DNA of 60,172 nt, taken from Candidatus Woesearchaeota archaeon (lineage in GTDB: Archaea; Nanobdellota; Nanobdellia; Pacearchaeales; GW2011-AR1). A program made the position numbers and the translations under genes. Under the pieces are notes generated by a model. The model ran no database searches and was not told the origin of the DNA. It saw only the letters and a list, made by a program, of their open reading frames with translations. Numbering within the stretch: position 1 is the stretch's first letter; each line of letters opens with the position of its first letter. This document shows, in pieces, positions 7,418 through 37,983 of this stretch. Location: the NCBI GenBank assembly GCA_964413095.1, contig CAYPRJ010000003.1:1-60172 (forward strand), in the 5' to 3' direction.

Positions 7418-7575
7418 TCTGTGATCCTGTTAATGATCATTTTGAATTAGAAATTATTCTAATAGCAACTGTAGATTAATTAAATAAAATCAGAAACTCT
7501 CTGTGTTTTACTCCTGTTTTGAAAGATTTTTGTTTATTAGATAATATATTTAAAAGCCAATAAATTTTCTTCTTT

Positions 7576-21003: not shown

Positions 21004-21148
21004 TACCATTCCAATCCTTTAAAATCAAATTTGAAATCTATGTTTTTTCCTTAAATTTTCTTTTTTAGATTAATCATACAACACACTACTAAATTAAAAA
21101 TATTTAAAAACCAAATAAACTTAACATAATTATAACGTATGGTTTTCA

Positions 21149-21250
21149 GACTTCCATCAGAGGCAATAAAAGGAAGTCGCTTGAGGGGCGAGTGATTTCG
21201 CGTATCGCCTCAACAAATAGCGAGGTCAGGAGTAAAAACCGTAGGTTTTG
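21149..21250. repeat. Dispersed structured element, copy 1 (copy 2 lies in the tRNA-Asp intron)
   Basis: Colinear blocks GACTTCC, CAGAGGCAAT, AAAAGGAAG, GCGAGTGATTTCGC, AGCGARGTCAGGAGT, AAACC..GGTTT shared with 37813-37938. Confidence 0.85.
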
Positions 21251-21258
21251 AAAAGAGT

Positions 21259-22128
21259 GTGAATATGGCAAAGAAAAAAAGTTCTTCAAATTTAAAAAAG
21301 AAATCTGAGAAAAAATCCAAATCAAAAAAAGAGAAAAAAAATTATCCAACATTAAATATTAAAGATGAATCAGAAATTGCTATGGATTTTGCTATCAAGG
21401 CATATAAAAAATTTGACAAACTTATCAAATCAATAGTTTTATTTGGTTCAAGTGTTAAACAATCTTCTTCTGCAGGTTCAGATATTGATATAGTTATCAT
21501 AATCGATGATGCTTCTGTAAAATGGGATCAGGAGTTAATAACATGGTATAGGAAAGAATTAGATAAGCTTCTAAGAGCTAATCCTTATAAAAAAGATTTA
21601 CATATCAATACAATAAAACTAACTACCTGGTGGGAAGATTTGATAAGGGGTGATCCTGTTGTTATAAATATTATAAGATATGGAGAGCCAATGATTGATA
21701 TGGCAGGATTTTTTGAACCCTTAAAGCATCTTTTAGTTGAAGGAAAAATAAAATCAACACCAGAAGCAATTCATGCTTGTCTTCAAAGAGCTCCTATGCA
21801 TATGGCAAGGAGCAAAGCATCTGAAATGAATTCTGTAGAAGGATTATATTGGGCAATGGTTGATACTGCTCATGCAGCTTTAATTGCTGCAAAAATTCCA
21901 CCAGCTTCTCCAGAACATATTCCTAGAGATTTAAAAGAAACTTTTGTCAATAAAGGAAAACTAAAAATGAAATATGTTCTTTGGTATAGAGATTTATTAT
22001 TATTACATAAAAAAATTGCTCACGGAGAAACCAATGACTTAAAAGGAGTGGAAGTAGATATGTGGCAAGAAAGAACTGAAGATTTTATGGAAACAATGGC
22101 TCAGTTAGTAAAAAACATAGTTGGTTAA
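21259..22128 (+). CDS. Nucleotidyltransferase (Pol-beta/MNT) + HEPN-like fusion
   Basis: LFGSS...SDIDIV; C-terminal YWAM..TAHAAL helical domain. Confidence 0.8.
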   Translation: MNMAKKKSSSNLKKKSEKKSKSKKEKKNYPTLNIKDESEIAMDFAIKAYKKFDKLIKSIVLFGSSVKQSSSAGSDIDIVIIIDDASVKWDQELITWYRKELDKLLRANPYKKDLHINTIKLTTWWEDLIRGDPVVINIIRYGEPMIDMAGFFEPLKHLLVEGKIKSTPEAIHACLQRAPMHMARSKASEMNSVEGLYWAMVDTAHAALIAAKIPPASPEHIPRDLKETFVNKGKLKMKYVLWYRDLLLLHKKIAHGETNDLKGVEVDMWQERTEDFMETMAQLVKNIVG

Positions 22129-22668
22129 CTATGCTGTTTCTCCTTCAGAATTTTCTTTAGGATATAAACTCTCTAAAGTTTGTGTTGTTAAACTATTAAA
22201 AATAGAAAGTGTTTTTTCTCTTAATTTTCTATCTCTAAGAGTATTTATAGCTTGATATGCTTTTCCAATTTTTTCTTTATCTTCATCAGAAATTTCTTTA
22301 TCTTTTGTTTTCTTAGATAAATCTTCTAATGTTGATTCATTATACTCTGAAAGTGCACTTTTAGCTTCTTCAGGAATACTATATCCTTCTTCTAAGTAAT
22401 TAACAAGCTCAGAGAATTTTGTTGAATTAAATGCTTTTTCATATTTTCCAGAATAACTTTGTATTGCTTGAGCAACACCGTAATTTGTTAATCCAGCTTC
22501 TCCGCCTGAAGCAGCTTCTTGTAATGATTTATTTATAATTGGATCATCTTCATCTAATATATTTTTATAAAAATCACCTAAAGCTACAACTGCTAATTGA
22601 TTGTCTTTTTTTACATTTGAAGCAGCTACTGCAGCTGATTCATATCTTGTTAAATCTTCTAAAGTCAT
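22129..22668 (-). CDS. Hypothetical acidic helical protein
   Basis: 179-aa ORF. Confidence 0.6.
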   Translation of the reverse strand: MTLEDLTRYESAAVAASNVKKDNQLAVVALGDFYKNILDEDDPIINKSLQEAASGGEAGLTNYGVAQAIQSYSGKYEKAFNSTKFSELVNYLEEGYSIPEEAKSALSEYNESTLEDLSKKTKDKEISDEDKEKIGKAYQAINTLRDRKLREKTLSIFNSLTTQTLESLYPKENSEGETA

Positions 22669-22743
22669 TTTCTATAATAATTCTAAAAATCTAAACTTTA
22701 TAAATGTTTCTATTTTGTCATCATTAAGTAGTTAAAAATTATC

Positions 22744-23280
22744 TTATTTTTTAACTTCATGCACAACTTTTGTTTTTCCTGGAAGCTTAGAATTTACTTG
22801 GGCTAATAACTTCCTAACAAATTTAACTGCTTTTTCATTTGGAAGAGCAATGAAGAATATTTTTCTTCCTTTGTTTACAATAGCTGCTTTTCCTGCAGCT
22901 TTTCCAAAAGCCAACTGCATTCCTGTTTGCATTCTGTCTGCTCCTGCTCCAGTAAGCATCTTGTTCTCTCTTTGAATGTGATGTGGAAAAGGAATAACTC
23001 TAAACAAATATTGTCCAGAAAGTTCTTTATCAAGTTTTTTATTTATGAACTGTCTGCAAGCTTCTAGAGCATTATGTCTAATCTGAATATTTTCCTCTGA
23101 AACAAGATTTAATTCATAGGGAAGCTTCCCTCTTTTATACAAAGAATAATTTCCCATATTAAACTTAACGATTTTCTGTTGTGGTACAGTTTTTATGTAA
23201 GATTTTCCCTTTCTTTTACTGGTTCTTGTATAAGGAACAGTTCTTTTTTTTGAATATGCTGTAGCTTTTCTAAGTGCCAT
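22744..23280 (-). CDS. rpl10e: 50S ribosomal protein uL16 (L10e)
   Basis: QIRHNALEACR, FPHHIQRENKMLTGAGADR..GM..AFGK. Confidence 0.97.
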   Translation of the reverse strand: MALRKATAYSKKRTVPYTRTSKRKGKSYIKTVPQQKIVKFNMGNYSLYKRGKLPYELNLVSEENIQIRHNALEACRQFINKKLDKELSGQYLFRVIPFPHHIQRENKMLTGAGADRMQTGMQLAFGKAAGKAAIVNKGRKIFFIALPNEKAVKFVRKLLAQVNSKLPGKTKVVHEVKK

Positions 23281-23642
23281 TATCCCCTCTCTGAAACAAA
23301 ATATTTATTTCCTCCACCCAATTTTTCAAAATAATTTATTTCATTTTTAATACCCTTGATATCTAATCTTCTATTTGGAGATATAAATACCCCTCCTTTT
23401 CCACCAATCTTTGCTTTAAAAAAATATTCTTTATTTTCATCTAATTCTTCAAGAAAAATTTCTTCTCCTTTTATTCCAGAAGAAATACTTGATATTTTAG
23501 TAACTAAAAAACTTTCTTTTTTTTCAGGATTTTGACTTTCTTCTTTACAATCCTCCAAATTTTTTTCATAATTTTCTTTTATTTTAATTTCCTCGTTCTC
23601 ATAATCTTTCTCTAAATTTTTTTGTGAATCTAAATCACTCAT
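23280..23642 (-). CDS. Hypothetical protein
   Basis: ORF coupled between rpl35ae and rpl10e. Confidence 0.55.
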   Translation of the reverse strand: MSDLDSQKNLEKDYENEEIKIKENYEKNLEDCKEESQNPEKKESFLVTKISSISSGIKGEEIFLEELDENKEYFFKAKIGGKGGVFISPNRRLDIKGIKNEINYFEKLGGGNKYFVSERG

Positions 23643-23911
23643 TTTTCTTTAACCTCTAAAATTTCTAAGTCAGTTGTAATAGATTGTCCTGGCAAACCTT
23701 TTTCAAAAATTGCTCTGACAATTCCATTATTTCCATGAGCAGAAGAAATTTTTCCTTTAATTATTTTGCCGCTAGGAGATTTCCACTCAACTTTTTTGCC
23801 AACAAATTTTTCAGCTTCTTCTCTGCTTTTTGCTCCCACATCTATCAAAAAGTGCCTTTCATGAATTGTATGTCTTCCTCGTCTAAATTGAACAACTTTT
23901 CCTTTAATCAT
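23639..23911 (-). CDS. rpl35ae: 50S ribosomal protein eL33 (L35Ae)
   Basis: FRRGRHT, GKKVEWKSPSG, HGNNG.VRA.F..GLPGQ. Confidence 0.95.
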   Translation of the reverse strand: MIKGKVVQFRRGRHTIHERHFLIDVGAKSREEAEKFVGKKVEWKSPSGKIIKGKISSAHGNNGIVRAIFEKGLPGQSITTDLEILEVKEK

Positions 23912-23988
23912 TTAATTAATCACTAAACTAAAAATTTAGTTAATATTTAATGAAAAATTTAGTTTTTAAAATTATTCTTTCTTTATTG

Positions 23989-24351
23989 TCATCTAAATTT
24001 CTTTGGGATAATAGGTCCATTTAAAAGATAAAAATCAACAAGTTGCTTTAAAACATAAGGAGCATGCTTAAGTGAAGTAAAATATGCTAATTTTACTATT
24101 TCTTCATCTAAATAATCTTGATTGCTTTCATCCTTTAAAGTTCTTAAAGAATTAATAAATTCTCTTAATTCTGGACCATTGTTTTTCAAATCTTCATCTG
24201 AAAAATTTTCCTCTCCTAATCTCTCTAAAAGACCTCCTGCGCTGTCACATAATTCTTTATAATCTTTTTCACTTAATTTCTTCTCAGAAGATTCATGAAG
24301 ATTCTCAACACATTCAATCATATCTAAAATATCATCATATAAATTAATCAT
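23989..24351 (-). CDS. Hypothetical protein
   Basis: 120-aa acidic ORF overlapping the upstream stop. Confidence 0.55.
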   Translation of the reverse strand: MINLYDDILDMIECVENLHESSEKKLSEKDYKELCDSAGGLLERLGEENFSDEDLKNNGPELREFINSLRTLKDESNQDYLDEEIVKLAYFTSLKHAPYVLKQLVDFYLLNGPIIPKKFR

Positions 24352-25946
24352 TTTTCCTCCTTGCTCTTACCATTTGCCAACTCACATCTTTGATTATATT
24401 CAATTAAATCATTAATTAAAATTGAAGCATTTTTCCTTGCTTCATCAACTTTATGAATATTTAATTTTCCCTTTTTAAAATCAGCTCTTGCAGTAACAAT
24501 ATTTTTCAAAATTCTCAAAGATTGTGGAGTCATTTTTCCTTTTTTAACCAGTTTTTTTTCAAATTCTTCAATTATTGCTTTTTGTGATTTTTTTCCAAAC
24601 ATGTTTTTTAAAATTGCAAAAGTATCCTGATAAATTTGTTCAATAGTTTTTTCCTGAGCTCTTTTTTCAATCTGCTCTCTTAGTTCTTTAAGCCTCTTCA
24701 AATAAGCTTCAGAATCTTTAATCAGCTTGTCGATTTCAGCTCCTTTAATTTCTTTAATTTTTTCATGCTCATAATCTTTGTAAATCTTAACAACTTTCTC
24801 TAAAATATCAATATATTTTTTTTCCAACATTTTTTCTTTTACCATAAAAGATTTTTTCATTTCTTCAACCAAATGTTTTGGTGCAGGGGGCGGTGAGCCA
24901 TTCAGCATCATTAATGCTTGACTAGGAGTTGTAACACTCCAATAAATATCATGAACAGCAATATCTAATAAAGCCCTTTTTGCCCTTGATACAGTTTTAT
25001 CACCCATAGACATAAACATATCAATAGCTTCTGGAGAAGGCTTAAGTTTCCCCATTTTCAAAAGAGCTTTCCATGGCATAAATGTTCCTCTGTCATAAAT
25101 TGGAATTCCATCTCTGATAAAAGTAAAAATAACAGGATGAGCATCTTTAACTGATTCCCAAAAATCAGTAAGCAAATAAATTTGTGGCTCAAGTTTATTT
25201 TTAACTCCAGCCAAGTTTGTAGCTTCTGAAACATACTGATAAATAATCCCTCTAAGTCTTTCTTTTAATTCTAAACGCGGCATTCTTTTAACATCTGTAT
25301 CATTAATAACAATAAAAACATCAACATCAGAATCTTTTCCTGCTTCTCCCCTCACTAAACTTCCACCAATAACATAACTTACAACATATCTTTCAAATTT
25401 TTGCAAAACCAAAGACTTGTGTATTTCTGCAACTCTAAGAGCTCCAAGAACTCCCTTATCATAAAGAGGAAAAGACATTGCTATAGCAGAAGCAATTTCA
25501 AATTTACTGTCAAGACAAAGTTCCCAGATATCTAAAGGAGTTTTAACATAAATCCAAACATTTTGTTTATTTTTTTCAATTTGTTCAATAATCTCTTTTT
25601 TTATCTTTGGAATTTCTTTGGATTTCTCTTCAGGAACAATAATATACAAATGAATTTTTTTCATGAGTTTATTTATTTTTTCTTCAGGCAAACCTTCCCC
25701 AACTTCTTCCTCAATAAAATTCTTTAGTGTTTGTGGAGGAATAATTCCTATTCCTTGAATATAAGAATATTTTTTAATAATGTAATTTTTCAATTTCTCA
25801 AGTTCTTTCTTAACTTTTTCCATATTTTTTTTATCTTTTTGAGGAGTTTCCGGAGCAATTGGTTTTTTATTAGAATACTGATTCTGGGCTCCAATACCCA
25901 TTTCTGGAATTTCTGATTCATCTTGAGTTTTTTTCTTTGATTCCAT
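24348..25946 (-). CDS. Multi-domain nucleotidyltransferase + HEPN-like protein
   Basis: GGSLVRGE...SDVDVF; degenerate N-terminal NT-like repeat; IYWS..TPSQAL helical domain. Confidence 0.8.
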   Translation of the reverse strand: MESKKKTQDESEIPEMGIGAQNQYSNKKPIAPETPQKDKKNMEKVKKELEKLKNYIIKKYSYIQGIGIIPPQTLKNFIEEEVGEGLPEEKINKLMKKIHLYIIVPEEKSKEIPKIKKEIIEQIEKNKQNVWIYVKTPLDIWELCLDSKFEIASAIAMSFPLYDKGVLGALRVAEIHKSLVLQKFERYVVSYVIGGSLVRGEAGKDSDVDVFIVINDTDVKRMPRLELKERLRGIIYQYVSEATNLAGVKNKLEPQIYLLTDFWESVKDAHPVIFTFIRDGIPIYDRGTFMPWKALLKMGKLKPSPEAIDMFMSMGDKTVSRAKRALLDIAVHDIYWSVTTPSQALMMLNGSPPPAPKHLVEEMKKSFMVKEKMLEKKYIDILEKVVKIYKDYEHEKIKEIKGAEIDKLIKDSEAYLKRLKELREQIEKRAQEKTIEQIYQDTFAILKNMFGKKSQKAIIEEFEKKLVKKGKMTPQSLRILKNIVTARADFKKGKLNIHKVDEARKNASILINDLIEYNQRCELANGKSKEEK

Positions 25947-26101
25947 ACTGAAAAAACGTTTTTCGACTTATATAAAGTTTGTGTTATAATTATCAACTGA
26001 TTAGATAAATTTTAAAACAGTAGAAACTTAAAAAATATAAGGCCCATTATGTAAGTGCCCTAAAAAGCTGTTATAGATAGTAAAAGTCAGTCACTATTCA
26101 A

Positions 26102-26173
26102 GGCCCATTAGTCCAACGGCTAAGACGACTCGTTTACACCGAGTAAACCAAGGTTCAACTCCTTGATGGGCCA
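26102..26173 (+). tRNA. tRNA-Val(TAC)
   Basis: GGCCCAT/ATGGGCC acceptor; ACTCG-TTTACAC-CGAGT; T arm CAAGG-TTCAACT-CCTTG. Confidence 0.95.
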
Positions 26174-26413
26174 TCTTAATTTTTTAAAATAAAATACTAA
26201 TTAATGAACTTAAAACAAAAACACCTGAAGTAAATGATGATGAATACTCTTCATTAACTTTCCTAATGTTGAAGTAAATGTTAGAGATGGAGAAATAAAT
26301 ATAGTTTCGAAAATTGAACTAAAATTAGATAATATTGATATTGACAAAACAATAAAAATAACCATTAACCAACCCCAATTAATCTTAAAAAGTATTTCTT
26401 CTTAAAAAAATAA

Positions 26414-26484
26414 GCGTGAGTAGTTTAATGGCAGAACAGGACGTTGCCAACGTTCAAATCGGGGTTCAATTCCCCGTTCGCGCA
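26414..26484 (+). tRNA. tRNA-Gly(GCC)
   Basis: GCGTGAG/TTCGCGC; GGACG-TTGCCAA-CGTTC; CGGGG-TTCAATT-CCCCG. Confidence 0.95.
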
Positions 26485-26493
26485 TTTTGATAG

Positions 26494-26883
26494 TTATCTT
26501 TTAGATTTTTTAGATTTATTTCTTCCTTTTTCTTCTTCAAAATTTTCTATTCTTCTTATTACTTTCTTAATTTTTCTTTTTTTCTTTTTTCTTCCCCATT
26601 TTGCTATAACAATCATAATAAAAATTACAATAAAGGTTACAATTATTGCTGAAACAAAATTATACAAATAAGCTTTATCTAATAATCCAGCTCTAGTGAG
26701 AAATTCATCTATACCAGATTTAATAGCATCTCTCCAAATTAAAGCAATTATAAAACCAAAACTTGCAACAACAGCAGGAGTTACATCATGTTTTAGTTCT
26801 CTTTTAATATTTTTTAAATCAGTTTGCAATTCAGCAACAATTTCATTCTTATTTTTCTTTTTATTCTTCTTCCTCTTTTTCAT
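26494..26883 (-). CDS. Small membrane protein (DUF5654-like)
   Basis: ASFGFIIALIWRDAIK..I motif; ATG at 26883. Confidence 0.7.
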   Translation of the reverse strand: MKKRKKNKKKNKNEIVAELQTDLKNIKRELKHDVTPAVVASFGFIIALIWRDAIKSGIDEFLTRAGLLDKAYLYNFVSAIIVTFIVIFIMIVIAKWGRKKKKRKIKKVIRRIENFEEEKGRNKSKKSKR

Positions 26884-26967
26884 AACATCTCCAATAAAAT
26901 AAATCTTATAAGTCTTTTGGATAATGAAGTTTTTTAAACACATGTTTCTTAAAAATAAAGAGGTGAA

Positions 26968-27819
26968 ATGTTTTACATTCCTATAATTGGAGCTTTAGCA
27001 TTAGCTGTTGGAACAATTTTACAGAAGACAGTATTAAAAAGAAAGCGAATTGATATAAAGCTCTACCATGTCCTAGAATTTCTAGCAATAGTTGCAGTAA
27101 TGATTCCACTTATTTTCTTTTTCTGGAATATTGAGTCAGAAGCATTTCAATTAAAAAATATTTTAATATTTTCTGTAGTTATAGTTTTTTCAATATTTGC
27201 AAATCTTTTTATGTTTTATTCTATGAAATGGGAAAAAATATCTAGCTTAGAACCGGCAAAAATTCTCGAGCCACTTTTTGTAATTATTTTAGCTTTAATA
27301 TTTAGTTTTATCTTCGGAGAAACTCTTTATGACAGAAATCTCAACATATTAATTCCATCACTAATTGCTGGAGTGGCTCTTACTTTTTCGCACATAAAAA
27401 AACATCATCTAACATTCAACAAATATTTTATTGCAGCAGTTTTAGGAAGTTTATTTTTTGCATTTGAATTAATAATTTCAAGATTAATTTTAGACTTTTA
27501 CTCTCCACTAACATTTTATTTCCTAAGATGTTCTTCAATTCTTCTGATAAGTTTTGCTTTATTCAGACCAAAAATAAAAAAAGCAGAAAAAATAAAATGG
27601 CACATAATTTTTATAGGAATTGTTCTTGTGATTTATAGGGTTGTAGTTTATTATGGTTATCAAAACCTCGGAATTATGTTCACAACATTGATGATAATGT
27701 TAACACCTGTTTTTATATACACTTTTGCAAGAATTTTCTTAAAAGAAAAATTAAACTGGAAAAATATTCTTTCAGCAGCAGTTATAATTTCATGTATTGT
27801 CTATGTTCTTTTAAACTAA
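26968..27819 (+). CDS. DMT/EamA family transporter
   Basis: About 10 TM segments in two repeats; FLKEKL at C terminus. Confidence 0.85.
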   Translation: MFYIPIIGALALAVGTILQKTVLKRKRIDIKLYHVLEFLAIVAVMIPLIFFFWNIESEAFQLKNILIFSVVIVFSIFANLFMFYSMKWEKISSLEPAKILEPLFVIILALIFSFIFGETLYDRNLNILIPSLIAGVALTFSHIKKHHLTFNKYFIAAVLGSLFFAFELIISRLILDFYSPLTFYFLRCSSILLISFALFRPKIKKAEKIKWHIIFIGIVLVIYRVVVYYGYQNLGIMFTTLMIMLTPVFIYTFARIFLKEKLNWKNILSAAVIISCIVYVLLN

Positions 27820-27832
27820 TTAAAAATTATAA

Positions 27833-29476
27833 CTAATATCCAGAATATCCCATATCTCCATAGTTGCTAGGATTGCCCATATTCATTTTCATGTTTCTAT
27901 TCATACCTTGTTTGCTCTCTCCAGAAGCAATAACATCATCTATACGTAAAATCATTATAGCTACTTCACTAGCAGAACTTATTGCCTGGCTTTTAATTTT
28001 ATATGGTTCAATAATTCTTTTTTCTAAAACATTTTCAATTTTATTGTTAAACAAATTTAATCCAATATTTTTTTCACCAGCATCATGTTTTGATTTTAAC
28101 TCAGTAAGAACATCTATTGGATCAAGTCCTCCATTCTCAGCAAGGGTGGCAGGAATAGCTTCTAAAGCAGAGGCGAATTCCTCAACAGCAAGCTGCTCTC
28201 TACCACTTAATCCTTGTGAAAACTCTCTAAGTCTTTTAGATAACTCAACTTCAATAGCACCTCCCCCAGGAACTACTAAGCCAGTTTTAAAAGAAGAAAT
28301 AACATCTCCTAATCCATCTCTTAAAGCTCTTTCAATTTCATCAATAACATGCTCTGTTCCCCCGTGAATTAAAATAGTTAAAGCTTTGGGATTTTCACAA
28401 CCTTCAATGTAAGTTAAAGTATCTTCACCATGGCTAACTTCTCTAATTGTTTCAGCATTTCCTAATTCCTGCTGAGAAAGCTCTCCTAAATTACTAACAA
28501 TTTTTCCACCAGTAGCTTTTGCTATTTTCTCCATATCACTTTTAGCAACTCTCCTGCAAGCATAAATTCCTGCTCTTGAAAGCAAATACTGAGCAAAATC
28601 ATCAATTCCTTTTTGGCAAAAAATAACATTAGCCCCTGACTCTTTAACTTTCTCAATCATATTCTTTATTGTTTTTTCTTCCTGGTCAACAAAACCCTGT
28701 AATTGTTCAGGAGAAGAAATTGAAATTTTTGTATCTATTTCTGGGTTTTTAATTTCAAGAGGAAAATCAATTAAAGCTATTTTCGCTCCATGAACATTTG
28801 AAGGCATTTCATTGGATGTTTTTTCTTTATCTAAAACAATCCCTGAAATAAGTTCTGTATCCTGCACACCATTACCTTTTGATTTTTCAATTTTAATGTC
28901 ATTTAAATTTACATTTCCATTATTCTGAATTTTCATCACTGCATCAACAATAACCTGGGCAAATTTCTCCTTAAATCCTTCTGCACCTTTTCCAGTCATA
29001 GCTGTAATTGCAATATACTTCAAAATATTCTCGTCTTGCGCAGTCATTCTCAAAGAAATATCTTTCAAAATTCCTTGGCATTTTTCAGCTGCCATTCTAT
29101 AACCTTTAGTAATAACTGTAGGATGAATTTTCTTGTCTAAAAGTTTCTCGGCATTCTCTAAAAGTTTGCCAGCAATCATAACTGCTGTTGTTGTTCCATC
29201 ACCAATTTCAGTTTCCTGTGTTTTTGCAATATCAACCATCATTCGCGCAGCAGGGTGTTCTATTTGCATTTCTTCTAAAATTGTGACTCCATCATTTGTA
29301 ATAATAATTTCACTGCTAGGAGATACAAGCATTTTGTCCATTCCTTTAGGTCCAAGAGTAGTTTTAATCATATCTGCAACCATTCTTGCAGCTAAAATAT
29401 TATTCCTTTGTGCATCTTTTCCCATCATCCTCTGAACATCCTCAGGCATAAGAACTATTGGTTGTTTTTCTGCCAT
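27833..29476 (-). CDS. ths: Thermosome (group II chaperonin) subunit
   Basis: [35 protein letters not shown]. Confidence 0.98.
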
Positions 29477-29561
29477 ATTTAAAAGTTTAACTTCTAATAT
29501 TTAAACATTATTGTGATGAAAAAACAAGAAAATTTAATAAGTATAAATCCCTTAATATATA

Positions 29562-30119: not shown

Positions 30120-30195
30120 TTGATTTAATTAGAAAAGAAACTTCTATCCAACTTTGTGTATAAAGTCTGAATAATGACTTACTCTTTACACAGAA

Positions 30196-30279
30196 TTAGA
30201 CAGTTAAAATAAAATTAATTGTTAAAAGAACAAGTATAGCAAAATACCCATATTTATCTACAAAGTCTGTAAAATCCAT
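30196..30279 (-). CDS. Possible 27-aa single-TM micro-protein (MDFTDFVDKYGYFAILVLLTINFILTV)
   Basis: ATG-to-TAA open frame filling an otherwise empty gap. Confidence 0.35.
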   Translation of the reverse strand: MDFTDFVDKYGYFAILVLLTINFILTV

Positions 30280-30401
30280 AAGTTATATTAGGTTTGGTTA
30301 TTAAAAAATCTTTTTATTTAGATTTTTTATCTTTAAGCCCAATTAAGTTAACAATACATTATATCCGAAGAATATTTAAATAAAGTTTCATATATTTTAA
30401 A

Positions 30402-30905
30402 ATGGCTGAAAAAAATGATATATTTTCAAGCAAGATAAAACACGATGGAATTTTTTCTTTCAAGGATTTTTATAAGTTTTGTTATGACTGGCTTACAGAA
30501 GAGGCAGGATTAAAAGTTTCAGAAGAAAAATATGTGGAAAAATTAGGTGGAGATTCAAAAAATATAGATGTTGAATGGGTTGGAAAAAAAGATGTTACTG
30601 ATTATTTTAAATTTGAAATTAGTGTAACTTTTAAAATTGTTGGTTTAACAAATGTGGAAATAAACCAAGCTGGAAAAAAGATAAAAACAAATAAAGGAAG
30701 TGTTGAAGTTAAAATTAAAGGAACACTTGTAAAAGATTATGAAGGAAAATTTGAGAAAACAGCTTTTCAGAAATTTATGAGAAGTATTTATGAAAAATGG
30801 ATAATTCATGCAAGAATTTCAGAATATGAAGACAAATTAGCAGGAGATTGTGATGAATTCTTAAATCAGGCAAAAGCCTATCTTGATTTAGAAGGGAAGA
30901 AATAA
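30402..30905 (+). CDS. Hypothetical protein
   Basis: 167-aa ORF preceded by a TATA-like TTTAAATA. Confidence 0.75.
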   Translation: MAEKNDIFSSKIKHDGIFSFKDFYKFCYDWLTEEAGLKVSEEKYVEKLGGDSKNIDVEWVGKKDVTDYFKFEISVTFKIVGLTNVEINQAGKKIKTNKGSVEVKIKGTLVKDYEGKFEKTAFQKFMRSIYEKWIIHARISEYEDKLAGDCDEFLNQAKAYLDLEGKK

Positions 30906-31124
30906 TAAACAAGCTTTATTGGAAAAGTTGCTATTTTTTTGATTTATTCGATATTGTTCTTTAACCCTCTTTATAGTCTTTTCATCTTGTATAAAAGCAA
31001 GTTCTTTTTCTTTAAATTTAGAAACAAATTTTTTTATTAAGTCCTCTCCCCATTTTAGAAACCCTTCTGTTGCACCTTTTGCTGCACTTTCTATTGGGTC
31101 ATATGACATCTCCAAACTCCTCAA
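30888..31124 (-). CDS. Hypothetical protein, possibly truncated
   Basis: Short ORF; its C terminus runs into the convergent gene. Confidence 0.4.
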   Translation of the reverse strand: MRSLEMSYDPIESAAKGATEGFLKWGEDLIKKFVSKFKEKELAFIQDEKTIKRVKEQYRINQKNSNFSNKACLLFLPF

Positions 31125-31341
31125 GATATTTAGAGAGGCTTAGTTCATTATCGTCGAGTATAATTTCACTTCCTGGCAAAATAACCATATTTTCAACCTT
31201 AACTGGAATTTCCAAATATTTGTCTAAAATCCTATTCCCTTTAGAATCTAAAACAAATTCTCCATCTGAAGAATATCCCAATTCTTTTAATAATGCAATT
31301 TTAGATTCAGAAGAAACTTGTTTTAATGATATTAATTCCAT
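31099..31341 (-). CDS. Hypothetical protein
   Basis: 80-aa ORF. Confidence 0.55.
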   Translation of the reverse strand: MELISLKQVSSESKIALLKELGYSSDGEFVLDSKGNRILDKYLEIPVKVENMVILPGSEIILDDNELSLSKYLEEFGDVI

Positions 31342-31404
31342 ATTTTATTTAAGAGTATATTGTTTATAAATTTGGTGGTGAATTATTCTAATGATTTTTT
31401 GAAA

Positions 31405-31905
31405 TTATCTAAGACAGGAGACTCTCTTATTTTCTAAATGCTTTCTCCAATTTACTTGTGAATTTTTCAACTCATTTGCTAATTTTATTATCCACTCATT
31501 CTTTCTGCTTTCTGTTTCTGAATTAATAATTAAAGAAAGTATTGGATGTTCAATTTTTTCAATCAGGGTGCATGGATTTGGTATTACAAAATTACCTGAA
31601 TGAAGATGCCTATAACCATGAGCCTCATCAACACCTATAACTCTTTTATTCTTTTTATCCACTCTTTTATCAACCACAACAGAATCATACAAAAAGAAAA
31701 ATTTGTTTTTATCCCATTTAATTTTAAGAATTAGTTTATATTTTTCATTTTCAAAAATTATCTTCTCACCAGAGCCCTTATTTTCTTTAATTGCTTTTTT
31801 CCCCAATTCTTCAAAATTTGCAGTTTGATTTTGTGGATTGTTAATAGCAGAAATTATGATTCCTTCCCAATCAACTTGATTTAAATCAATCATTTTTATC
31901 CTCAA
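31405..31905 (-). CDS. Hypothetical protein with D..HG..H.H motif (toxin-like?)
   Basis: IGVDEAHGYRHLH. Confidence 0.5.
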   Translation of the reverse strand: MRIKMIDLNQVDWEGIIISAINNPQNQTANFEELGKKAIKENKGSGEKIIFENEKYKLILKIKWDKNKFFFLYDSVVVDKRVDKKNKRVIGVDEAHGYRHLHSGNFVIPNPCTLIEKIEHPILSLIINSETESRKNEWIIKLANELKNSQVNWRKHLENKRVSCLR

Positions 31906-31927
31906 TAATTTTCTTTTTCTTCCATTC

Positions 31928-32125
31928 TTATAATAATAAAGGTTTATCGCTATAGGTAGTTAATCCTTTTTTAAATATTGTATCTCTATTCTTTGAGTTA
32001 AGCAAACCCAACAAATAATAAGGATTTATCTTCTCTTCAGGCATAGAATCTCTTTCGCTTTTTGGAATAGACAGAAATTTCTTAACTATCTTCTCTACTT
32101 CTAATTTTGCACTTTCTTTATCCAT
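31928..32125 (-). pseudogene. Internally deleted type IIG restriction-modification gene remnant
   Basis: N-terminus-like MDKESAKLEVEKIVKKF...PEE joined to a target-recognition-domain motif YYLLGLLNSK. Confidence 0.55.
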
Positions 32126-32274
32126 AAAAATGTTATTGATTATAAACTTAAAAATCTACCTAAAAGTCCCGACAAGTTAACAAGGAATTATTAAACAAAC
32201 CTTAATAAGCATAAATTACTAAATATACTTCTCACTAACAAAACTTTTAAATACAAATTATCTGTTTTTTAACT

Positions 32275-33648
32275 ATGAAAAAGATATTTGCCTTAATGGT
32301 TTTACTATTAATTATTCCAAATGTTATTGCAATAAACCTAAATGTAGAAAAAACAAGTTCTGATGAAGTTTTAATTCCTGAATTAAATAAACCTGTTGAG
32401 GTGAGTTTGAAAGTAACAAATAATGGAAATACAGATGATTTTATATTTTATACTTTTTTTGGCTCAGGAATGAATCCAACAGAAAGCATTAGGATAAATG
32501 CAGGAGAAACAAAAAATATAGAAGCAGAGATTTATCCAAGACTTGATTTGCAAAGAGGTTTTGTAACATTTAGTTATTTTATACAAGGTGATAAAGGAGA
32601 TCATGAAGAAAGACTGACAATAAAAGTTATAGATTTAGAAGATGCTTTTGAAATAGGAGCAGAAGAATTCAACCTAGAAGAAAATTCTATAAAAGTTTAT
32701 ATAAAAAACAAAGTAAATTTTAATTTCGAAAAAATTGAAGCAGACTTCTCATCACCTTTTTTTGAATTCACTGAAAGTTTTAATTTAGAACCAAATAAAA
32801 TAAAAGAATTTGATATTCAGGTTGATAAAGAAGATTTCAAAAAGTTAATGGCTGGTTTTTACACTTTAGAAGCAGATATTTTTATAGAAGATAAAAATGC
32901 AGAAGTGAATGGAGTTATAGAATTTGTAGAGAAAAATCAATTAACCACAAAGCAAGAAAAAAAAGGATTTATTATTACTACTCAGACAATCAAAAAAATC
33001 AATGAAGGAAATGTTGAAGTCGGCTCTGAAATAAAAATAAAAAAGAATATAATCTCAAGACTTTTCACAACCCTGATTCCTCAACCAGATATTGTTGAGA
33101 GAAAAGGATTAAATGTTTATTACACCTGGAACAAAGAAGTAAAACCAGGAGAAACTTTAGAGATAAAAGCAAGAACTAACTGGTTTTTTCCTTTATTAAT
33201 AGTATTTTTTATTGTGTCAATAATAATCTTAGCAAAACAATATTCAAAAACAAATGTTATATTAAAAAAGAGAATTAATTTTGTGAGGGCAAAAGGAGGA
33301 GAATTTGCATTAAAAGTAACTATAAAAGTTCAGGCGAAAAAATATGTAGAAAGAGTTAGTGTGACAGACAGACTTCCTCCTTTAGTAAAAATCCATGAAA
33401 GATTTGGAACAGAAAAACCCAAAAAAGTAGATGAGCAAAAGAAAAAAATAGAATGGTTTTTTGAAAAATTAGAAACAGGGGAAACTAGAGTTCTTAGTTA
33501 TATAATTTATTCAAAAGTGGGTGTAGTCGGAAAATTTGCATTGCCTTCTGCAACAGCAATATATGAAAGAGACGGACAAATTCAAGAATCAAATTCAAAC
33601 AAGGCTTTTTTTGTAGCAGAACAAAGACAAAAAGGAAAAGAAGAATAA
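32275..33648 (+). CDS. Secreted, membrane-anchored beta-rich hypothetical protein
   Basis: Signal peptide, Ig-like segments, TM at WFFPLLIVFFIVSIIIL. Confidence 0.75.
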   Translation: MKKIFALMVLLLIIPNVIAINLNVEKTSSDEVLIPELNKPVEVSLKVTNNGNTDDFIFYTFFGSGMNPTESIRINAGETKNIEAEIYPRLDLQRGFVTFSYFIQGDKGDHEERLTIKVIDLEDAFEIGAEEFNLEENSIKVYIKNKVNFNFEKIEADFSSPFFEFTESFNLEPNKIKEFDIQVDKEDFKKLMAGFYTLEADIFIEDKNAEVNGVIEFVEKNQLTTKQEKKGFIITTQTIKKINEGNVEVGSEIKIKKNIISRLFTTLIPQPDIVERKGLNVYYTWNKEVKPGETLEIKARTNWFFPLLIVFFIVSIIILAKQYSKTNVILKKRINFVRAKGGEFALKVTIKVQAKKYVERVSVTDRLPPLVKIHERFGTEKPKKVDEQKKKIEWFFEKLETGETRVLSYIIYSKVGVVGKFALPSATAIYERDGQIQESNSNKAFFVAEQRQKGKEE

Positions 33649-33690
33649 TCAAGAAAATCTTTAAAAGCTGTTATTTCTTTTATATTTTAA

Positions 33691-33761
33691 CCCTCCATAG
33701 CTTAGTGGTAGAGCAGTCGGCTGTAGCCCGACGTGTCCCAGTTCGATTCTGGGTGGAGGGA
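33691..33761 (+). tRNA. tRNA-Tyr(GTA), intron-less
   Basis: Archaeal C1-G72 acceptor CCCTCCA/TGGAGGG; GTCGG-CTGTAGC-CCGAC; short variable loop. Confidence 0.95.
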
Positions 33762-33780
33762 TTCAAATGAATGAAGGCAT

Positions 33781-33995
33781 ATATTATTCCCATAATCGAA
33801 CTTTCGATTCCGAGCATTTACACGAGTGTTAATCCATAAAAAAATGAGTGTGGGTGCGAGTTGTGGTAGAGGGATAAATGGAGCTTTATGCCCATACTCC
33901 CAGGATTTAACAGTGTTACCAGTTCGATTACAACGAATTGCTTTGCAATTCGTGTTGCCAAAATTCCACAGGAATTTTTAGCACTGGGAAATATT
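33781..33995 (+). ncRNA. Unassigned structured RNA candidate (four-way junction)
   Basis: Nested helices listed in findings; G-U pairs favour the plus strand. Confidence 0.65.
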
Positions 33996-34018
33996 ATCAA
34001 AAAGAGGAAAAATATCTA

Positions 34019-35161
34019 ATGAAGCTTAAACTAAGTCAAAGACATAAAAAATTATTTACTGCTGTTTCAATAATAACTGGAACTATTGTTGGTGCTGGAT
34101 TTTTAGGAATTCCTTATGTTGCAGCAAAATCTGGTTTTTTTGTTGCTCTTGGATACCTGATTGTTATTGCAGGTTTAAGTTTATTAATTAATCTGTCTTT
34201 TGGAGAAATAATTCTAAGAACAAAAGGAGAACATCATCTTGTAGGATTTGCATATAAATATCTTGGAAAAAAAGGAAAAGATATTCTGTTTATATTATTC
34301 AACATTGCAATAATCTCTGCTTTATTAGCTTATATGATGGGAGTGGGAGAAAGTTTGAGTGTCTTAATTTTCGGAAGTGCAAAATATAAAATTATGATTG
34401 GAGCTTTATTTGGTTTTTTCATGTCTTATATTTTATGGGGAGGAATTTCTTCATTAAGAAAATTCGAGAAAATTGGTGTCCTGGCTATTGCACTAATAGC
34501 TATTTTTATTGCTGTATTCTTTCTTAAAGATATATCTTATTCTAATTTATTAGGATTTAATAAAAAATATATATTCCTGCCTTTCGGGGTGATAATCTTT
34601 TCTTTAATGGAATTTTTTTCTTTCCCAGCTGTTAGAAGAGTTTTGAATAAAAACGAGGATTTAACAAAAAAAGCAATTATTATTGGAACATTAATTCCTG
34701 CAATATTCTATGCTTTCTTTATGTTCATTATTGTGGGTGTTGCAGGCCTAAAAACTCCTGAAGTTTCTACACTAGCTTTCGGACCTTTGTTTATAATCTT
34801 AGGAATTGTGACTATGTTTACTTCATATTTAGGTTTAGGAACATCTTTAGAAAGAAGTTATATGGTTGATTATACAAATAAGAAGAAAAAGGCATGGTTT
34901 AAAGCAGCTATAATACCAATAGCCTTATTTTTATTAATTGGATTTTTTGAATTCTTTTCTTTTACAACTATTCTTTCTATTGGAGGAGTTTTTGCAGGAG
35001 GCATAATTGGAATGATGGTTTTAATTATACATAAAAAGGCAGACACTCAGGGAAATAGAATTCCAGAATACAAAGTTCATTTAAGCAAGGCTGTTATTAT
35101 TTTGATTTCACTTCTATATATTGGAGGAGTGGTAGTTGAAATATTAAAATTTTTTAATTAA
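34019..35161 (+). CDS. Aromatic amino acid permease (TyrP/Mtr-like)
   Basis: GTIVGAGFLGIPYV..KSG, PFGVIIFS, GT.IP..FY, TSYLG; ATG at 34019 with GAGG upstream. Confidence 0.8.
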   Translation: MKLKLSQRHKKLFTAVSIITGTIVGAGFLGIPYVAAKSGFFVALGYLIVIAGLSLLINLSFGEIILRTKGEHHLVGFAYKYLGKKGKDILFILFNIAIISALLAYMMGVGESLSVLIFGSAKYKIMIGALFGFFMSYILWGGISSLRKFEKIGVLAIALIAIFIAVFFLKDISYSNLLGFNKKYIFLPFGVIIFSLMEFFSFPAVRRVLNKNEDLTKKAIIIGTLIPAIFYAFFMFIIVGVAGLKTPEVSTLAFGPLFIILGIVTMFTSYLGLGTSLERSYMVDYTNKKKKAWFKAAIIPIALFLLIGFFEFFSFTTILSIGGVFAGGIIGMMVLIIHKKADTQGNRIPEYKVHLSKAVIILISLLYIGGVVVEILKFFN

Positions 35162-35172
35162 TCTTTTCTATT

Positions 35173-35526
35173 TCATCCATACAAATAAATTCCTGTTATC
35201 ATTGATATATGCATAAATATCCAAATAGTGTTTGCCATTACAATAGGTTTATTTTTTATGAAAATGCCGTAAGCCAGCCAAAATGAAGCTATAAACAAAT
35301 ATGCTCCCCATGTTATAAGCGAGAGACCTTCAGCAGTTTTCTCTGTGAAAATTTTTATTACTTGAGGCAAAGTCATTATTGGTCCAGCAATACTAAAAAG
35401 TATAACAAATTCTTCAATAAAATTTGCTAAACGTTTCTGTGTTCTTTTTGGTAATTGTTTTTTAAAACGATTTAATCTTTGAAATATAAATTCAGAAATT
35501 CCAAAATCATTACTAAAAAGACTCAT
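35173..35526 (-). CDS. PQ-loop/SemiSWEET-like transporter
   Basis: TLPQVIKI...K.AEGLS, WL.YG....PI. Confidence 0.8.
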   Translation of the reverse strand: MSLFSNDFGISEFIFQRLNRFKKQLPKRTQKRLANFIEEFVILFSIAGPIMTLPQVIKIFTEKTAEGLSLITWGAYLFIASFWLAYGIFIKNKPIVMANTIWIFMHISMITGIYLYG

Positions 35527-35716
35527 AATATAAATATAAAATTCATACTTAAAAAATTAACTTTTATTCTATTAAGTTTTAGATTAAATTTTTCTCACTT
35601 TAAAATAGAAAAAATTTGTTGTAAAAAATTTCCAAAAAAACAATCTAACCTTTCAAGAATAGAAGATTTTAAAAACTAAATAAATCTCTAAAAATCAATA
35701 AAAAATGAGGTAAACA

Positions 35717-35794
35717 ATGGAGGAGGATTTAAATTTTTCTGATGAAGAAGGATTCTTCGACGAAGATATTGATGATTTAGAACTCGACGATTAA
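35717..35794 (+). CDS. 25-aa very acidic micro-protein (MEEDLNFSDEEGFFDEDIDDLELDD)
   Basis: GAGGT Shine-Dalgarno upstream of ATG; open to TAA. Confidence 0.55.
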   Translation: MEEDLNFSDEEGFFDEDIDDLELDD

Positions 35795-35795
35795 T

Positions 35796-36704
35796 TTATT
35801 TTTTCATTTTTAATTTTATTTTATTATTTTCTTTTTCCAATTCTTCAAAATCTGATTCAATAATTAAATTCAACTCTCTGATATTTATTTTTGAAACAAA
35901 AACATTGCTTAGACTTAATGTTATTCCTTCTCCAATCCCTATTGATTCTAAATTAACTTCTTTTAAAAAATCATCATCAAGGTAAATCTTTACATTTGCA
36001 TTTTCTGATTTTTTTAATCCATTGTTTCTTATACTCATATTTATATCTAAATATCTTTTTTCAATTTTAGCATGCACATTCTCAAAAGACAAATCAGGCT
36101 GGCTTGGATAAGAATAAATTTCATTTAATAACTGCAGAGTATCTTCTCCAATAACCTGAGAACACTTAGTTACAGGATACATTATATTGTTAGGATTAGA
36201 AGAATGATTAAAACCAAGCACATGTAAAAGTTCATGTATTGCAACATTCGGTCTTTCGCATTTTACATCTCTTATTAATAAAATATTTCCATGAAAAATA
36301 ACATCAAACTTTTCTCCAGAAATTATTTTTGTAGGACCTCCCTCACCTGCAATAAACATTCCTCCTTCAATTTTATTTTTTTCATCACATGTTACAGAGA
36401 TTTCTTCATTTGAATTTATAGGATAAAATTCTAAAATAGTATCCTGAGAAATTATTTGAAAGGCTCTTTTCATATCATTCTTTTTTTGAAGAGAACAATC
36501 CTGATTAATTTTATAAGATATTGTTGAATTTGGAAATCTCATATTAGAATAAAATTGCATTTCTGTAGAATTATCTAAGGTAAAGTTAGAACTTGAAGGA
36601 GAACCCAAAAAAAACTCTGCATTATTAGGAATAAACCAATAAAAAATCAAAAGTGCTATTGCAATTAAGCTAAAAAAAGCACCAAGAACAACTTTCCACT
36701 CCAT
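35796..36704 (-). CDS. Matrixin-like zinc metalloprotease with C-terminal CARDB-like domain
   Basis: HELLHVLGFNH, Met-turn IMYP, N-terminal TM, IRNNG Ig-like domain. Confidence 0.88.
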   Translation of the reverse strand: MEWKVVLGAFFSLIAIALLIFYWFIPNNAEFFLGSPSSSNFTLDNSTEMQFYSNMRFPNSTISYKINQDCSLQKKNDMKRAFQIISQDTILEFYPINSNEEISVTCDEKNKIEGGMFIAGEGGPTKIISGEKFDVIFHGNILLIRDVKCERPNVAIHELLHVLGFNHSSNPNNIMYPVTKCSQVIGEDTLQLLNEIYSYPSQPDLSFENVHAKIEKRYLDINMSIRNNGLKKSENANVKIYLDDDFLKEVNLESIGIGEGITLSLSNVFVSKINIRELNLIIESDFEELEKENNKIKLKMKK

Positions 36705-36780
36705 ACGAATAAATTATTAATGGATTATATAAAACTATTTATTAAAAAATAAAAAATAAAAGAATAAGATTTTTACTCAA

Positions 36781-36972
36781 TTATTCAGATTGTTCATTAA
36801 CTTCTGAACTATCTGACTCTGAAGATTCTTGTAATGGTTCTCGTGGTTGAGGAGTGCTTTCCTCTTCTGTTTCTCCAGAAGGTTGGCTCTCTTCTTGTTC
36901 GGGTTGTTCTTGTGGTTGAACCTCTTCAGATTCCTCTTGAGTTTTTTCTGCGTTTTGAGTTTCGTCTTCCAT
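36781..36972 (-). CDS. Acidic disordered small protein
   Basis: 63-aa E/Q/S-rich ORF. Confidence 0.55.
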   Translation of the reverse strand: MEDETQNAEKTQEESEEVQPQEQPEQEESQPSGETEEESTPQPREPLQESSESDSSEVNEQSE

Positions 36973-37060
36973 TTGAAATAAAATTTTTAATTTATATTAA
37001 TTAGGCAAAATTCTCTTTTAAAGTTTTTGAATTCCAATAAACAGCATGAATTTTATTATA

Positions 37061-37076
37061 ATGAATCAAAACGCCC
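37061..37076. repeat. Direct repeat of the tRNA-Asp 3' end and trailer (partner 37729-37744)
   Basis: ATGAAT(C/A)AAAACGCCC, 15/16 identical. Confidence 0.55.
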
Positions 37077-37194
37077 TGAGCGAAAACTCTCCTCGACAAA
37101 ATTAGTGGTGTAATTTTGGATTTTAATTCTGTTGTTCTAAGATTTTTAAAGATTCTTAAGATAGATTTATTAAATTCTAATCTTATAAAAAGAG

Positions 37195-37509
37195 ATGTAT
37201 AAAGTTTATGTAATCAATTCTTTCAAAACTATATTAAATACATTATCCAGAGATGAACAAGAGAAAGTTAATAAGATATTTTTACAACTTAAAGAGAATC
37301 CTTATGTAGGAGATCAATTAAGGTACAGATTTTTTAGAGAAAAAAGAATAAAAGAAAAAAGAGTTTACTATTTAATTTATGATTATATCAAAATAGTTTT
37401 GATGGTTGGTATAAGCGACAAAAAAGCGCAACAAAGCACAATAAACCAAATTGTTAGATATTTTAAAGAATACAGAAAATATGCTGAAAATTTATCAAAA
37501 GAAGATTAA
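37195..37509 (+). CDS. RelE/ParE-like toxin
   Basis: L.ENPYVGDQL, REKRIKEKRVYY.I. Confidence 0.75.
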   Translation: MYKVYVINSFKTILNTLSRDEQEKVNKIFLQLKENPYVGDQLRYRFFREKRIKEKRVYYLIYDYIKIVLMVGISDKKAQQSTINQIVRYFKEYRKYAENLSKED

Positions 37510-37671
37510 TTAAGCAACTCTTTCAACCCTGCCTGCTTTTAAGTCATCAAGTCCTTCTTTAAATTGTCTTATTAAATCCCAGTCTACTTCTTTCACTCTC
37601 TCAAGCTCTTCAGCTTTTCTTTCAAGCTCCTCTAATCTTTCCTTTGATATTTTTACCATCTGTTTTTCCAT
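37510..37671 (-). CDS. RelB-like antitoxin (53 aa), convergent with the toxin
   Basis: MEKQMVKISKERLEEL...DWDLIRQFKEGLDDLKAGRVERVA; missed by the ORF track. Confidence 0.7.
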   Translation of the reverse strand: MEKQMVKISKERLEELERKAEELERVKEVDWDLIRQFKEGLDDLKAGRVERVA

Positions 37672-37739
37672 ATTTTTCACAGGTTTCTTAAATATTTAAG
37701 GTTTTTCTTTTTCTGAAAGTGTGTAATTATGAATAAAAA

Positions 37740-37983
37740 CGCCCACGCCGGGAATTGAACCCGGGTTATGTCCGTTCTGCACGAAAGGAGCCATTTACAT
37801 CCTCTTCACTGCGACTTCCCAGAGGCAATTTGAAATCGTCTTTCAGTGCCAAAAAGGAAGGTGTGTGCGAGTGATTTCGCAAACCTATTTTTCGCCCTTT
37901 ATTGTGAGCGAAGTCAGGAGTTAAGGAAACCAAGGTTTCCTTCATGCGACAGGGACATGTCTTAGCCACTGGACCACGTAGGC
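37740..37983 (-). tRNA. tRNA-Asp(GTC) with 172-nt BHB intron (37775-37946)
   Basis: GCCTACG/CGTGGGC-G73; TGTCC-CT-GTC-G|intron|C-GGACA; BHB central helix CUGU/GCAG with two 3-nt bulges. Confidence 0.92.
37813..37938. repeat. Dispersed structured element, copy 2, inside the tRNA-Asp intron
   Basis: Colinear blocks shared with 21149-21250. Confidence 0.85.

Follow-up and report, generated by a model that had tools for sequence, protein, structure and literature searches.

A short, hairpin-rich element occurs both in an intergenic spacer and inside a transfer RNA intron of the window examined here, that is, the whole 60,172-nt stretch of DNA that we analysed (positions 1 to 60,172 of contig CAYPRJ010000003.1, assembly GCA_964413095.1, assigned to a Candidatus Woesearchaeota archaeon). 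One copy (21145..21249) lies upstream of a gene for a nucleotidyltransferase-domain protein; the other (37811..37942) occupies much of the intron of the tRNA-Asp(GTC) gene. Judged by sequence comparison, both are members of a family that is dispersed through this genome and related DPANN archaea. We consider it likely that they arose as independent insertions of a non-autonomous, gene-less, hairpin-forming mobile element that survives where it is harmless, and we interpret the family as a gene-less mobile element, spread across the lineage, that acts as a tRNA intron as well. The genome is Pacearchaeota-like and is represented by a 770-kb assembly (0.77 Mb; 51 contigs; 29% G+C; 88% complete), of which the window is contig C3.

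Structure of the two window copies

The resemblance of the two regions is far above chance: a local alignment of 21146-21255 with 37806-37948 scored 41, compared with 15.8 ± 2.4 for 1000 dinucleotide shuffles, none of which (0/1000) scored as high. When the regions were compared in reverse complement, the result stayed at background and was not significant. The original prediction had listed a series of colinear blocks on the plus strand at 21149-21250 and 37813-37938, and all of them are present at these coordinates. Its plus-strand description is right, but it overlooked that tRNA-Asp is encoded on the minus strand; the intron copy is thus antisense to the tRNA that carries it.

Copies of the family have a common scaffold of three parts. 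The first is a hairpin, P1, with a 7-9-bp stem and a 12-18-nt loop (YC-RGAGGCA-RU-NAAA) in which GAGGCA is nearly invariant among copies. The second is either a hairpin, P2 (UUCC…GGAA), in what we term type A, or a linker, GCUUGAGGGAUAC, in type B. The third is the terminal hairpin P3, which reads GGAAACC-nn-GGUUUCC in type A and AAAACC-GUA-GGUUUU in type B. The spacer copy is a type B scaffold with an additional central module (plus strand, sense to the downstream gene; 47.4 bits with the covariance model). It comprises P1 (GACTTCC / ATCAGAGGCAATAAAA / GGAAGTC, 21149..21178, defined by the model match and by P1 covariation), the linker GCTTGAGG, the central module (GCGAG-T-GATTTCGC…GCGAGGTC-A, 21188..21229, defined by pattern and covariation analysis) and P3 (AAAACC-GTA-GGTTTT, 21235..21249). 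The intron copy, on the same strand, is a type A scaffold with the module. Its family-consistent parse gives P1 as GCGACTTC-CCAGAGGCAATTT-GAAATCG(T)C (37811-37840) and P2 as CTTTC-AGTGCCAAAA-AGGAAGG (37840-37861), followed by the central module (37867-37917) and P3 (GGAAACC-AA-GGTTTCC, 37923-37942). The “extra hairpin” earlier described in the CTTCC/GGAAG loop of this copy is an alternative fold, since alignment with the initiator-Met and Lys introns and with the copy in the polymerase gene polB yields the parse given here instead.

The two window copies therefore differ in scaffold subtype, and their closest common part is the inserted central module. Might they simply reflect a one-off duplication or gene conversion between spacer and intron, with no wider family? 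They are 16.6 kb apart on one contig and have two blocks of 14 and 14/15 nt in common, as such an event would leave them. The subtypes do not match, however, and each copy has a closer relative on another contig: the spacer copy is matched by a near full-length one at C10:8743-8850, and the intron copy by C7:5857-5998 (92 nt at about 91% identity). The census detailed below, which counts about 21 copies here and no fewer than 49 central modules in other genomes, refutes a local event, and we regard its probability as negligible.

The structure of the scaffold is borne out by covariation. Among 27 aligned copies, 96.8% of the cells of the P1 helix are paired, and all 7 pairs have compensatory changes on both sides. 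The covariation score was 0.989, compared with 0.288 for shuffled alignments (0/500 as high), and controls in which the helix was slid scored far lower. These changes separate lineages of the element rather than recording compensation at single loci, because subfamilies with identical stems span genera at non-orthologous loci.

The central module is optional. Four copies in this genome have it (the two window copies, the one in the L7Ae leader on C10 and the one on C7 behind the gene for the signal recognition particle (SRP) RNA), and in all four its blocks GCGAGTGATTTCGC … AGCGARGTCAGGAGT stand just 5' of P3. The module folds by a long-range helix between GYGAUUUCGC and GCGARGUCR. A pattern scan of the GTDB species set located it at 15 loci of metagenome-assembled genomes (MAGs) of Pacearchaeota, Woesearchaeota and Nanoarchaeota, and many metagenome contigs contain it as well; at least 49 distinct modules are present outside this genome after removal of GC-rich chance matches. 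Bacterial matches of the pattern, which came from GC-rich genomes, were rejected as chance. At the free Y:R position, the 49 distinct copies have C-G 32 times, U-A 12, U·G 3 and C·A 2 (Fisher, 4e-7). The central helix also holds one or two U·G pairs in the plus sense; these would become C·A mismatches in the complement, which identifies the plus sense as the folding strand of the module. In other genomes, the module alone forms a sense-oriented intron of tRNA-His (six contigs) and of a tRNA called Glu by ARAGORN. It also sits between P2 and P3 of type A scaffolds in other genera, and because the same arrangement recurs there, the composite of scaffold and module is old and not a local accident. 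One Woesearchaeota MAG (CAZJEO010000008.1, near 7300-7423; locus L092) has two tandem modules in an apparent low-complexity protein-coding region.

P1 and the central module thus define two RNA (or single-stranded DNA) motifs that covariation supports and for which no counterpart has been described. The original prediction had named covariation as a check, and the changes in P1 and in the central helix bear it out. It had also recognised no ribozyme or guide RNA, and a search of Rfam with both window regions concurred: nothing reached the gathering threshold, and only chance-level matches appeared at E values up to 10.

Archaeal tRNA introns host box C/D guide RNAs, so a known intron-borne guide such as that of pre-tRNA-Trp, or another described RNA family or riboswitch, deserves consideration. 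The resemblance to the pre-tRNA-Trp guide consists in a structured RNA within a long tRNA intron at position 37/38, and the strings GTGATT and CTGA are superficially like C and D boxes. On inspection, these strings fall within covarying stems or do not have C/D or k-turn spacing; a k-turn reading of the GA·AG step beside the central helix was rejected for its spacing as well. Unlike the guide, the element has neither C/D boxes nor an Rfam match, even at the permissive E value, is antisense to its tRNA and is not kept in the orthologous tRNA. A riboswitch would be expected to stay with its gene, yet the leader copies are not kept upstream of orthologous genes (nucleotidyltransferase, 0/29; EF-1α, 0/25). 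We therefore find a described RNA of any of these kinds very improbable.

Distribution in this genome and its relatives

A BLAST search of the whole assembly with the spacer copy returned the near full-length copy on C10 and partial ones elsewhere. A covariance model of P1, the kind of search that had been suggested for finding further copies, gave 27 matches in the genome, about 19 of them convincing when combined with a motif scan; two more were recognised by inspection and a second search, for a total of about 21, and more exist in relatives.

Where do these copies reside? Eight lie in sense orientation directly upstream of protein genes (a conserved gene of unknown function, Spt5, L11, the nucleotidyltransferase gene, signal-peptide peptidase, RNase J, EF-1α and L7Ae), and in 7/8 P3 ends 1-4 nt before the ATG. 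Six, all antisense, are in tRNA introns at 37/38 (Asp, Arg-TCG, Leu-TAA, initiator Met, Lys-CTT and Ser-GCT); because P1, P2 and P3 are common to all six, they constitute related introns in different isoacceptors. Four copies stand beside tRNA genes and are flanked by a doubled 13-32-nt piece of the tRNA end. At C1:58540-58700 and C4:36400-36560, for example, two tRNA-Leu genes are followed by type B copies and one or two extra tRNA 3' ends (TTYGAATCCTTTCTCCCGCA), with a tail adjoining the tRNA that contains GGATTCGAAC, the complement of the T-loop region. One copy (C7:5857-5998) abuts the SRP RNA gene (Rfam RF00169), beginning within 1-2 nt of its 3' end and oriented to the RNA as in the tRNA introns; this gene is at C7:5999-6290 (locus L007:1583-1874) on the minus strand, with the RF00169 core match at C7:6053-6146. 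Another copy is a 29-codon insert in the exonuclease domain of the family-B DNA polymerase (C22:3715-3801, minus strand, 87 nt), in frame and without stops (…KGLKED, 29 residues, VEYLKDEADML…). No splice motif surrounds this insert, which is probably translated.

The last copy in the census is the third in the window (16498..16613, plus strand; P1 16547-16575, P3 16593-16611). It is diverged (18.8 bits) and lies at the 3' end of a 473-aa gene (15076-16497), the last codons of which are doubled around the insert as a 15-nt duplication, ATGCCRAGTTATACA, at 16480-16494 and 16614-16628. A P2-like piece, GGTTGCAGGAGCYGTGA, also occurs twice in this copy, at 16507 and 16576. With 14 of the approximately 21 copies outside introns, the family is not confined to tRNA or rRNA genes.

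Two other interrupted RNA genes were noticed. A tRNA-Trp gene with a 53-nt intron occupies 1087-1210 of the window (minus strand), and the 16S rRNA gene (C5:44800-46143), which leaves its contig before the 3' end, has an insert with an open reading frame (ORF) whose text is typical of a LAGLIDADG-type intron ORF; owing to the truncation, the assembly does not contain its anti-Shine-Dalgarno sequence.

In related genomes, the same scaffold stands before other genes (RFC, SMC, TBP, a GatE-like gene and others), again in sense orientation with P3 abutting the start, and one insert is translated in frame in the RFC of a relative. Individual copies have close kin there: the RNase J leader is 89% identical to the SMC leader of the relative G010, with P1 and P3 100% identical, and the Spt5 leader is 92% identical to a copy in G008. 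Subfamilies defined by stem sequence are thus common to different genera at non-orthologous loci. Target duplications accompany the insertions. In this genome they measure 13 and 25-32 nt beside tRNAs, in addition to the 15 nt at 16480/16614 of the window; in relatives, duplications of 19 and 32 nt occur at a gene end and a gene start. Their length is variable overall, from 3 to 32 nt. The junction on the P3 side is always precise, and the P1 side has a variable tail.

Insertion sites and their empty counterparts

The tRNA-Asp(GTC) gene (37740..37983, minus strand) consists of a 5' exon (37983-37947), a 172-nt intron at position 37/38 (37946-37775) and a 3' exon (37774-37740). ARAGORN, with long introns allowed, calls a 74-nt tRNA with a 172-nt intron on the minus strand at 37984-37739, and the joined exons are 78-85% identical by exon BLAST to the intronless tRNA-Asp of relatives. 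Using our own scanner for the bulge-helix-bulge (BHB) motif, i.e. two 3-nt bulges separated by 4 bp, we found a canonical hBHBh' arrangement (h = 6 bp, H = CUGU/GCAG, h' = 7 bp); the predicted cuts give exactly the 172-nt intron at 37/38. The intron side of this motif derives from a tail of non-element sequence at the 3' end of the intron (37775..37810, minus strand): its GCAG pairs with CUGU of the anticodon loop, AAC is the 3' bulge, and CCUUUCGU pairs with AUGAAGG. The predicted splice motif hence comes from this tail and the anticodon loop, not from the element. Equivalent BHB motifs were found at the Arg, Leu and initiator-Met introns. We also considered whether the copies in mRNA contexts might be BHB introns of the cbf5 type; in 10 such copies, no motif matched the boundaries, and only weak, AT-rich chance candidates emerged.

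Comparison with relatives, which the original prediction had proposed for this tRNA, revealed empty sites: at least eight related genera (G001, G002, G005, G014, G015, G021, G023 and G039) have a tRNA-Asp gene without an intron. Only two relatives have an intron at the same position, G010 (115 nt) and G020 (123 nt). Both introns have the same scaffold order and the same 3' tail, RCAGAAC, as the intron here, without the central module, and that of G020 has a P1-like hairpin in the same antisense orientation. An insertion into the anticodon loop would be tolerated if the flanking intron sequence formed the BHB motif and the splicing endonuclease removed the insert.

The spacer copy can be compared with an even closer empty site. 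The nucleotidyltransferase gene is a conserved core gene with orthologues in 40/41 relatives, and the element is missing from 29/29 orthologous loci examined. The gene has a TFB-recognition element (BRE)/TATA promoter (AAAAATATTTAAAAACCA, 21103..21120, plus strand) that is the best match here to a promoter matrix built from this genome (score 10.7). In G005, the promoter and spacer are nearly letter-for-letter those of the window (AAATATTTAAAAACCAAtTAAACTTAACATAATTATAA), with the same spacing, and lead straight into ATGGTG: an exact empty site. In the window, the promoter is kept upstream of the insertion, and alignment with the G005 orthologue identifies ATGGTT (21139..21144, plus strand) as a relic of the ancestral start. 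Past P3, the in-phase frame resumes as E-K-S-V-N-M-A-K-K-K…. From this resumed frame and the empty site of G005 it follows that the element entered after codon 2 and that the gene now starts at an internal methionine. The present frame (21265..22128, plus strand; Pfam NTP_transf_2 and Polbeta) opens at an in-frame ATG 15 nt past the element, where reading would have restarted upon insertion. From the relic start runs an 18-codon frame (MVFRLPSEAIKGSRLRGE), closed by TGA 21193-21195 within GAGTGATTT, a conserved stretch of the central module; provided that transcripts still begin about 7 nt upstream, it would be a near-leaderless upstream reading frame. An exact-protein look-up recovered an identical spacer in a Logan contig of run SRR7048220, which does not count as an independent sample of the population. 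For EF-1α, the element is found in 0/25 relatives, and G008 has a similar AT-rich leader without it.

Start codons as sites of insertion should be viewed against the organization of genes in this genome. At least a quarter of long ORFs have a BRE/TATA consensus (cGAAA..TTTATAAA) at a constant distance of -36 to -22 from the ATG, and across the genome there is little Shine-Dalgarno signal; from the constant distance and the weak signal, the mRNAs appear to be mostly leaderless or nearly so. Near genes organised in this way, an insertion is non-destructive only at the boundary of the start codon or past the stop codon, which explains part of the observed placement. An insertion at the extreme 5' end of a protein gene would leave a usable start if the start codon were doubled or replaced by the next ATG, and the insert would become a structured leader. 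The copies in mRNA contexts are presumably transcribed as such leaders, or translated in the case of polB. Other tolerated sites would be the 3' ends of genes and RNAs, positions beside tRNAs where the tRNA end is doubled and, occasionally, an in-frame position within a protein, as in polB.

Two more specific notions of the leaders were rejected. The element does not begin exactly at the transcription start, as predicted starts are 15-25 nt upstream of P1. Nor does an upstream frame from a relic ATG always cross the element and couple to the real start, the pattern being inconsistent among 16 copies. Several of the apparent relic ATGs are not ancestral; a relative has ACG at this place in EF-1α.

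Spread, function and known systems

The original prediction had left two options: a mobile or repeated element that uses a BHB intron as a safe haven, and one functional RNA domain employed both in the intron and in the leader. The first accords with the approximately 21 copies, the empty sites for both window copies, the target duplications and the canonical hBHBh' motif. The second finds no support in the form given, because the intron copy is antisense, so that the transcripts of the two copies would be complementary, and because neither site is kept in related genera.

As to mechanism, we infer DNA-level copy-and-paste from a single-stranded, folded intermediate, with copies persisting only where little harm is done. 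Target-primed copying of a single-stranded template would fit the precise P3 end, the variable P1 side and the variable duplications, and this fit is no proof. The precise junction, the variable tail and the duplications of 3 to 32 nt could also speak for RNA-mediated spread in the manner of a short interspersed nuclear element (SINE), in which DNA copies of an excised intron or a cleaved leader RNA are made at a nicked target; the leader copies are, moreover, the complement of the intron RNA, as a first-strand copy would be. Such a route would call for a reverse transcriptase, however, and no RVT_1 domain was found in the 88%-complete assembly. An A-tail is absent, and the same junction features fit DNA template switching. 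We thus judge SINE-like spread to be distinctly improbable.

Several observations weigh against a purely mobile, harmless element. There are few near-identical copies within the genome, which does not point to recent activity. Besides the missing RVT_1 domain, no Y1 transposase domain (Y1_Tnp, PF01797) was found in the 88%-complete assembly; it occurs in 6 of the 26 genomes that were searched and does not follow copy number. A search for a viral carrier was likewise negative, the two pattern matches in IMG/VR being GC-rich chance. Orientation is strict: copies before protein genes are sense, and those in all 6 introns and behind the SRP RNA are antisense, a rule that exceeds what harmlessness alone explains. 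Finally, leader copies fold 2.8 kcal/mol better on average in the mRNA sense than in the complement (14/17, Wilcoxon p=0.009), which hints at selection on the transcribed RNA. Intron copies have no such strand bias, and the two classes differ (p=0.016). Within the Asp intron, the sole substitution in the P1 stem relative to sibling introns makes a G·U pair in the tRNA sense and C·A in the plus sense; P2 shows the reverse pattern. Together, orientation and folding suggest some selection on whichever strand is transcribed, and they leave room for a leader function in cis and for antisense pairing between introns and leaders. In G005, a gene for an IS200-type Y1 transposase was observed about 1.4 kb from a P1 copy (C110:8119-8472 and 9912-9946).

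Could the element, then, serve the host? As a structured leader in cis, it might present the start codon, stabilise the mRNA 5' end or bind a protein through the P1 loop, with mobility being only the means of delivery. The near-invariance of GAGGCA in this loop and the greater stability of leader copies in the mRNA sense, not matched by intron copies, would suit such a role. So would the placement of the non-tRNA copies here and in relatives, 16 of about 20 of which are sense and end 1-4 nt before a start (EF-1α, L7Ae, L11, Spt5, RNase J, TBP, RFC and SMC among them). Given a mostly leaderless genome, the 100-nt structured leader of EF-1α must be compatible with high expression. Yet the same genes are without the element in 25-29 related genera, and relatives carry it before other genes. 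Copies that sit at the 3' ends of genes, interrupt polB or adjoin tRNAs do not fit a leader function; the spacer copy is not adjacent to its start codon, and the frame of the relic ATG stops inside the element. Selection for a host function is accordingly a serious but rather unlikely explanation for the family.

A role in trans is also conceivable. In the intron RNAs, the conserved P1 loop is exactly complementary to that of the EF-1α, L7Ae, L11, Spt5 and RNase J leaders, and the complementarity extends over most of the scaffold. Excised introns, which are probably circular, could pair with these mRNA leaders by loop-loop kissing and so couple tRNA output to the expression of the translation and transcription machinery in an otherwise leaderless genome; we consider this idea a long shot.

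The likelier reading, a mobile element, invites comparison with known repeats. The element works like the Rickettsia palindromic elements (RPEs) in being a short, gene-less hairpin repeat of a reduced genome that is tolerated in intergenic DNA, RNA genes and, in frame, proteins. The sequences are unrelated, however, and RPEs are bacterial and not removed by splicing. To our knowledge, a preference for start codons has not been described for RPEs. Like miniature inverted-repeat transposable elements (MITEs) and the repeats derived from IS200/IS605 (PATE/REP), the family is non-autonomous, structured and multi-copy, with subfamilies common to several genomes. Unlike MITEs, its two ends (an AT-rich tail or P1 on one side, P3 on the other) have no terminal inverted repeats, and its duplications are not of fixed length. 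IS200/IS605-derived repeats, which insert 3' of a fixed tetranucleotide and leave no duplication, differ in that duplications are present here and that no Y1 transposase was found in this genome. Compared with ends that are bound by a transposase, moreover, the element does the reverse of what is usual: it keeps its loops and varies its stems.

The tRNA introns of Thermoproteales offer the nearest parallel. They are reported to have undergone “transposition” among tRNA genes by an unknown mechanism (PMC4090602, summarising Fujishima et al. 2010). As far as that summary goes, those families and the present one have in common related introns in different isoacceptor tRNAs (six here), BHB-dependent removal and a spread thought to be at the DNA level. 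Measured against the same summary, the present element differs in occurring outside tRNA genes too (ahead of start codons, at the ends of genes, in frame in polB and behind the SRP RNA). It also has target duplications, a modular build, a preference for start codons, a fixed orientation in introns that opposes the one in mRNAs, and a DPANN host. Full-text literature searches retrieved no account of elements like these from DPANN archaea.

The gain of tRNA introns in archaea has been addressed by a preprint (2026) on those of Asgard archaea, which tested several routes of arrival, none of which was general (10.64898/2026.10.13.758758), and the Thermoproteales families are, going by the summary cited above, the only described case of intron “transposition”. 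A family that is both a spliceable intron and a free insertion, with empty sites, duplications, precise and variable ends and subfamilies that cross genera, makes intron arrival testable. It also shows a compact, mostly leaderless genome tolerating insertions at the start codons of essential genes. The element described here may thus offer one of the few visible cases of tRNA intron arrival in archaea.

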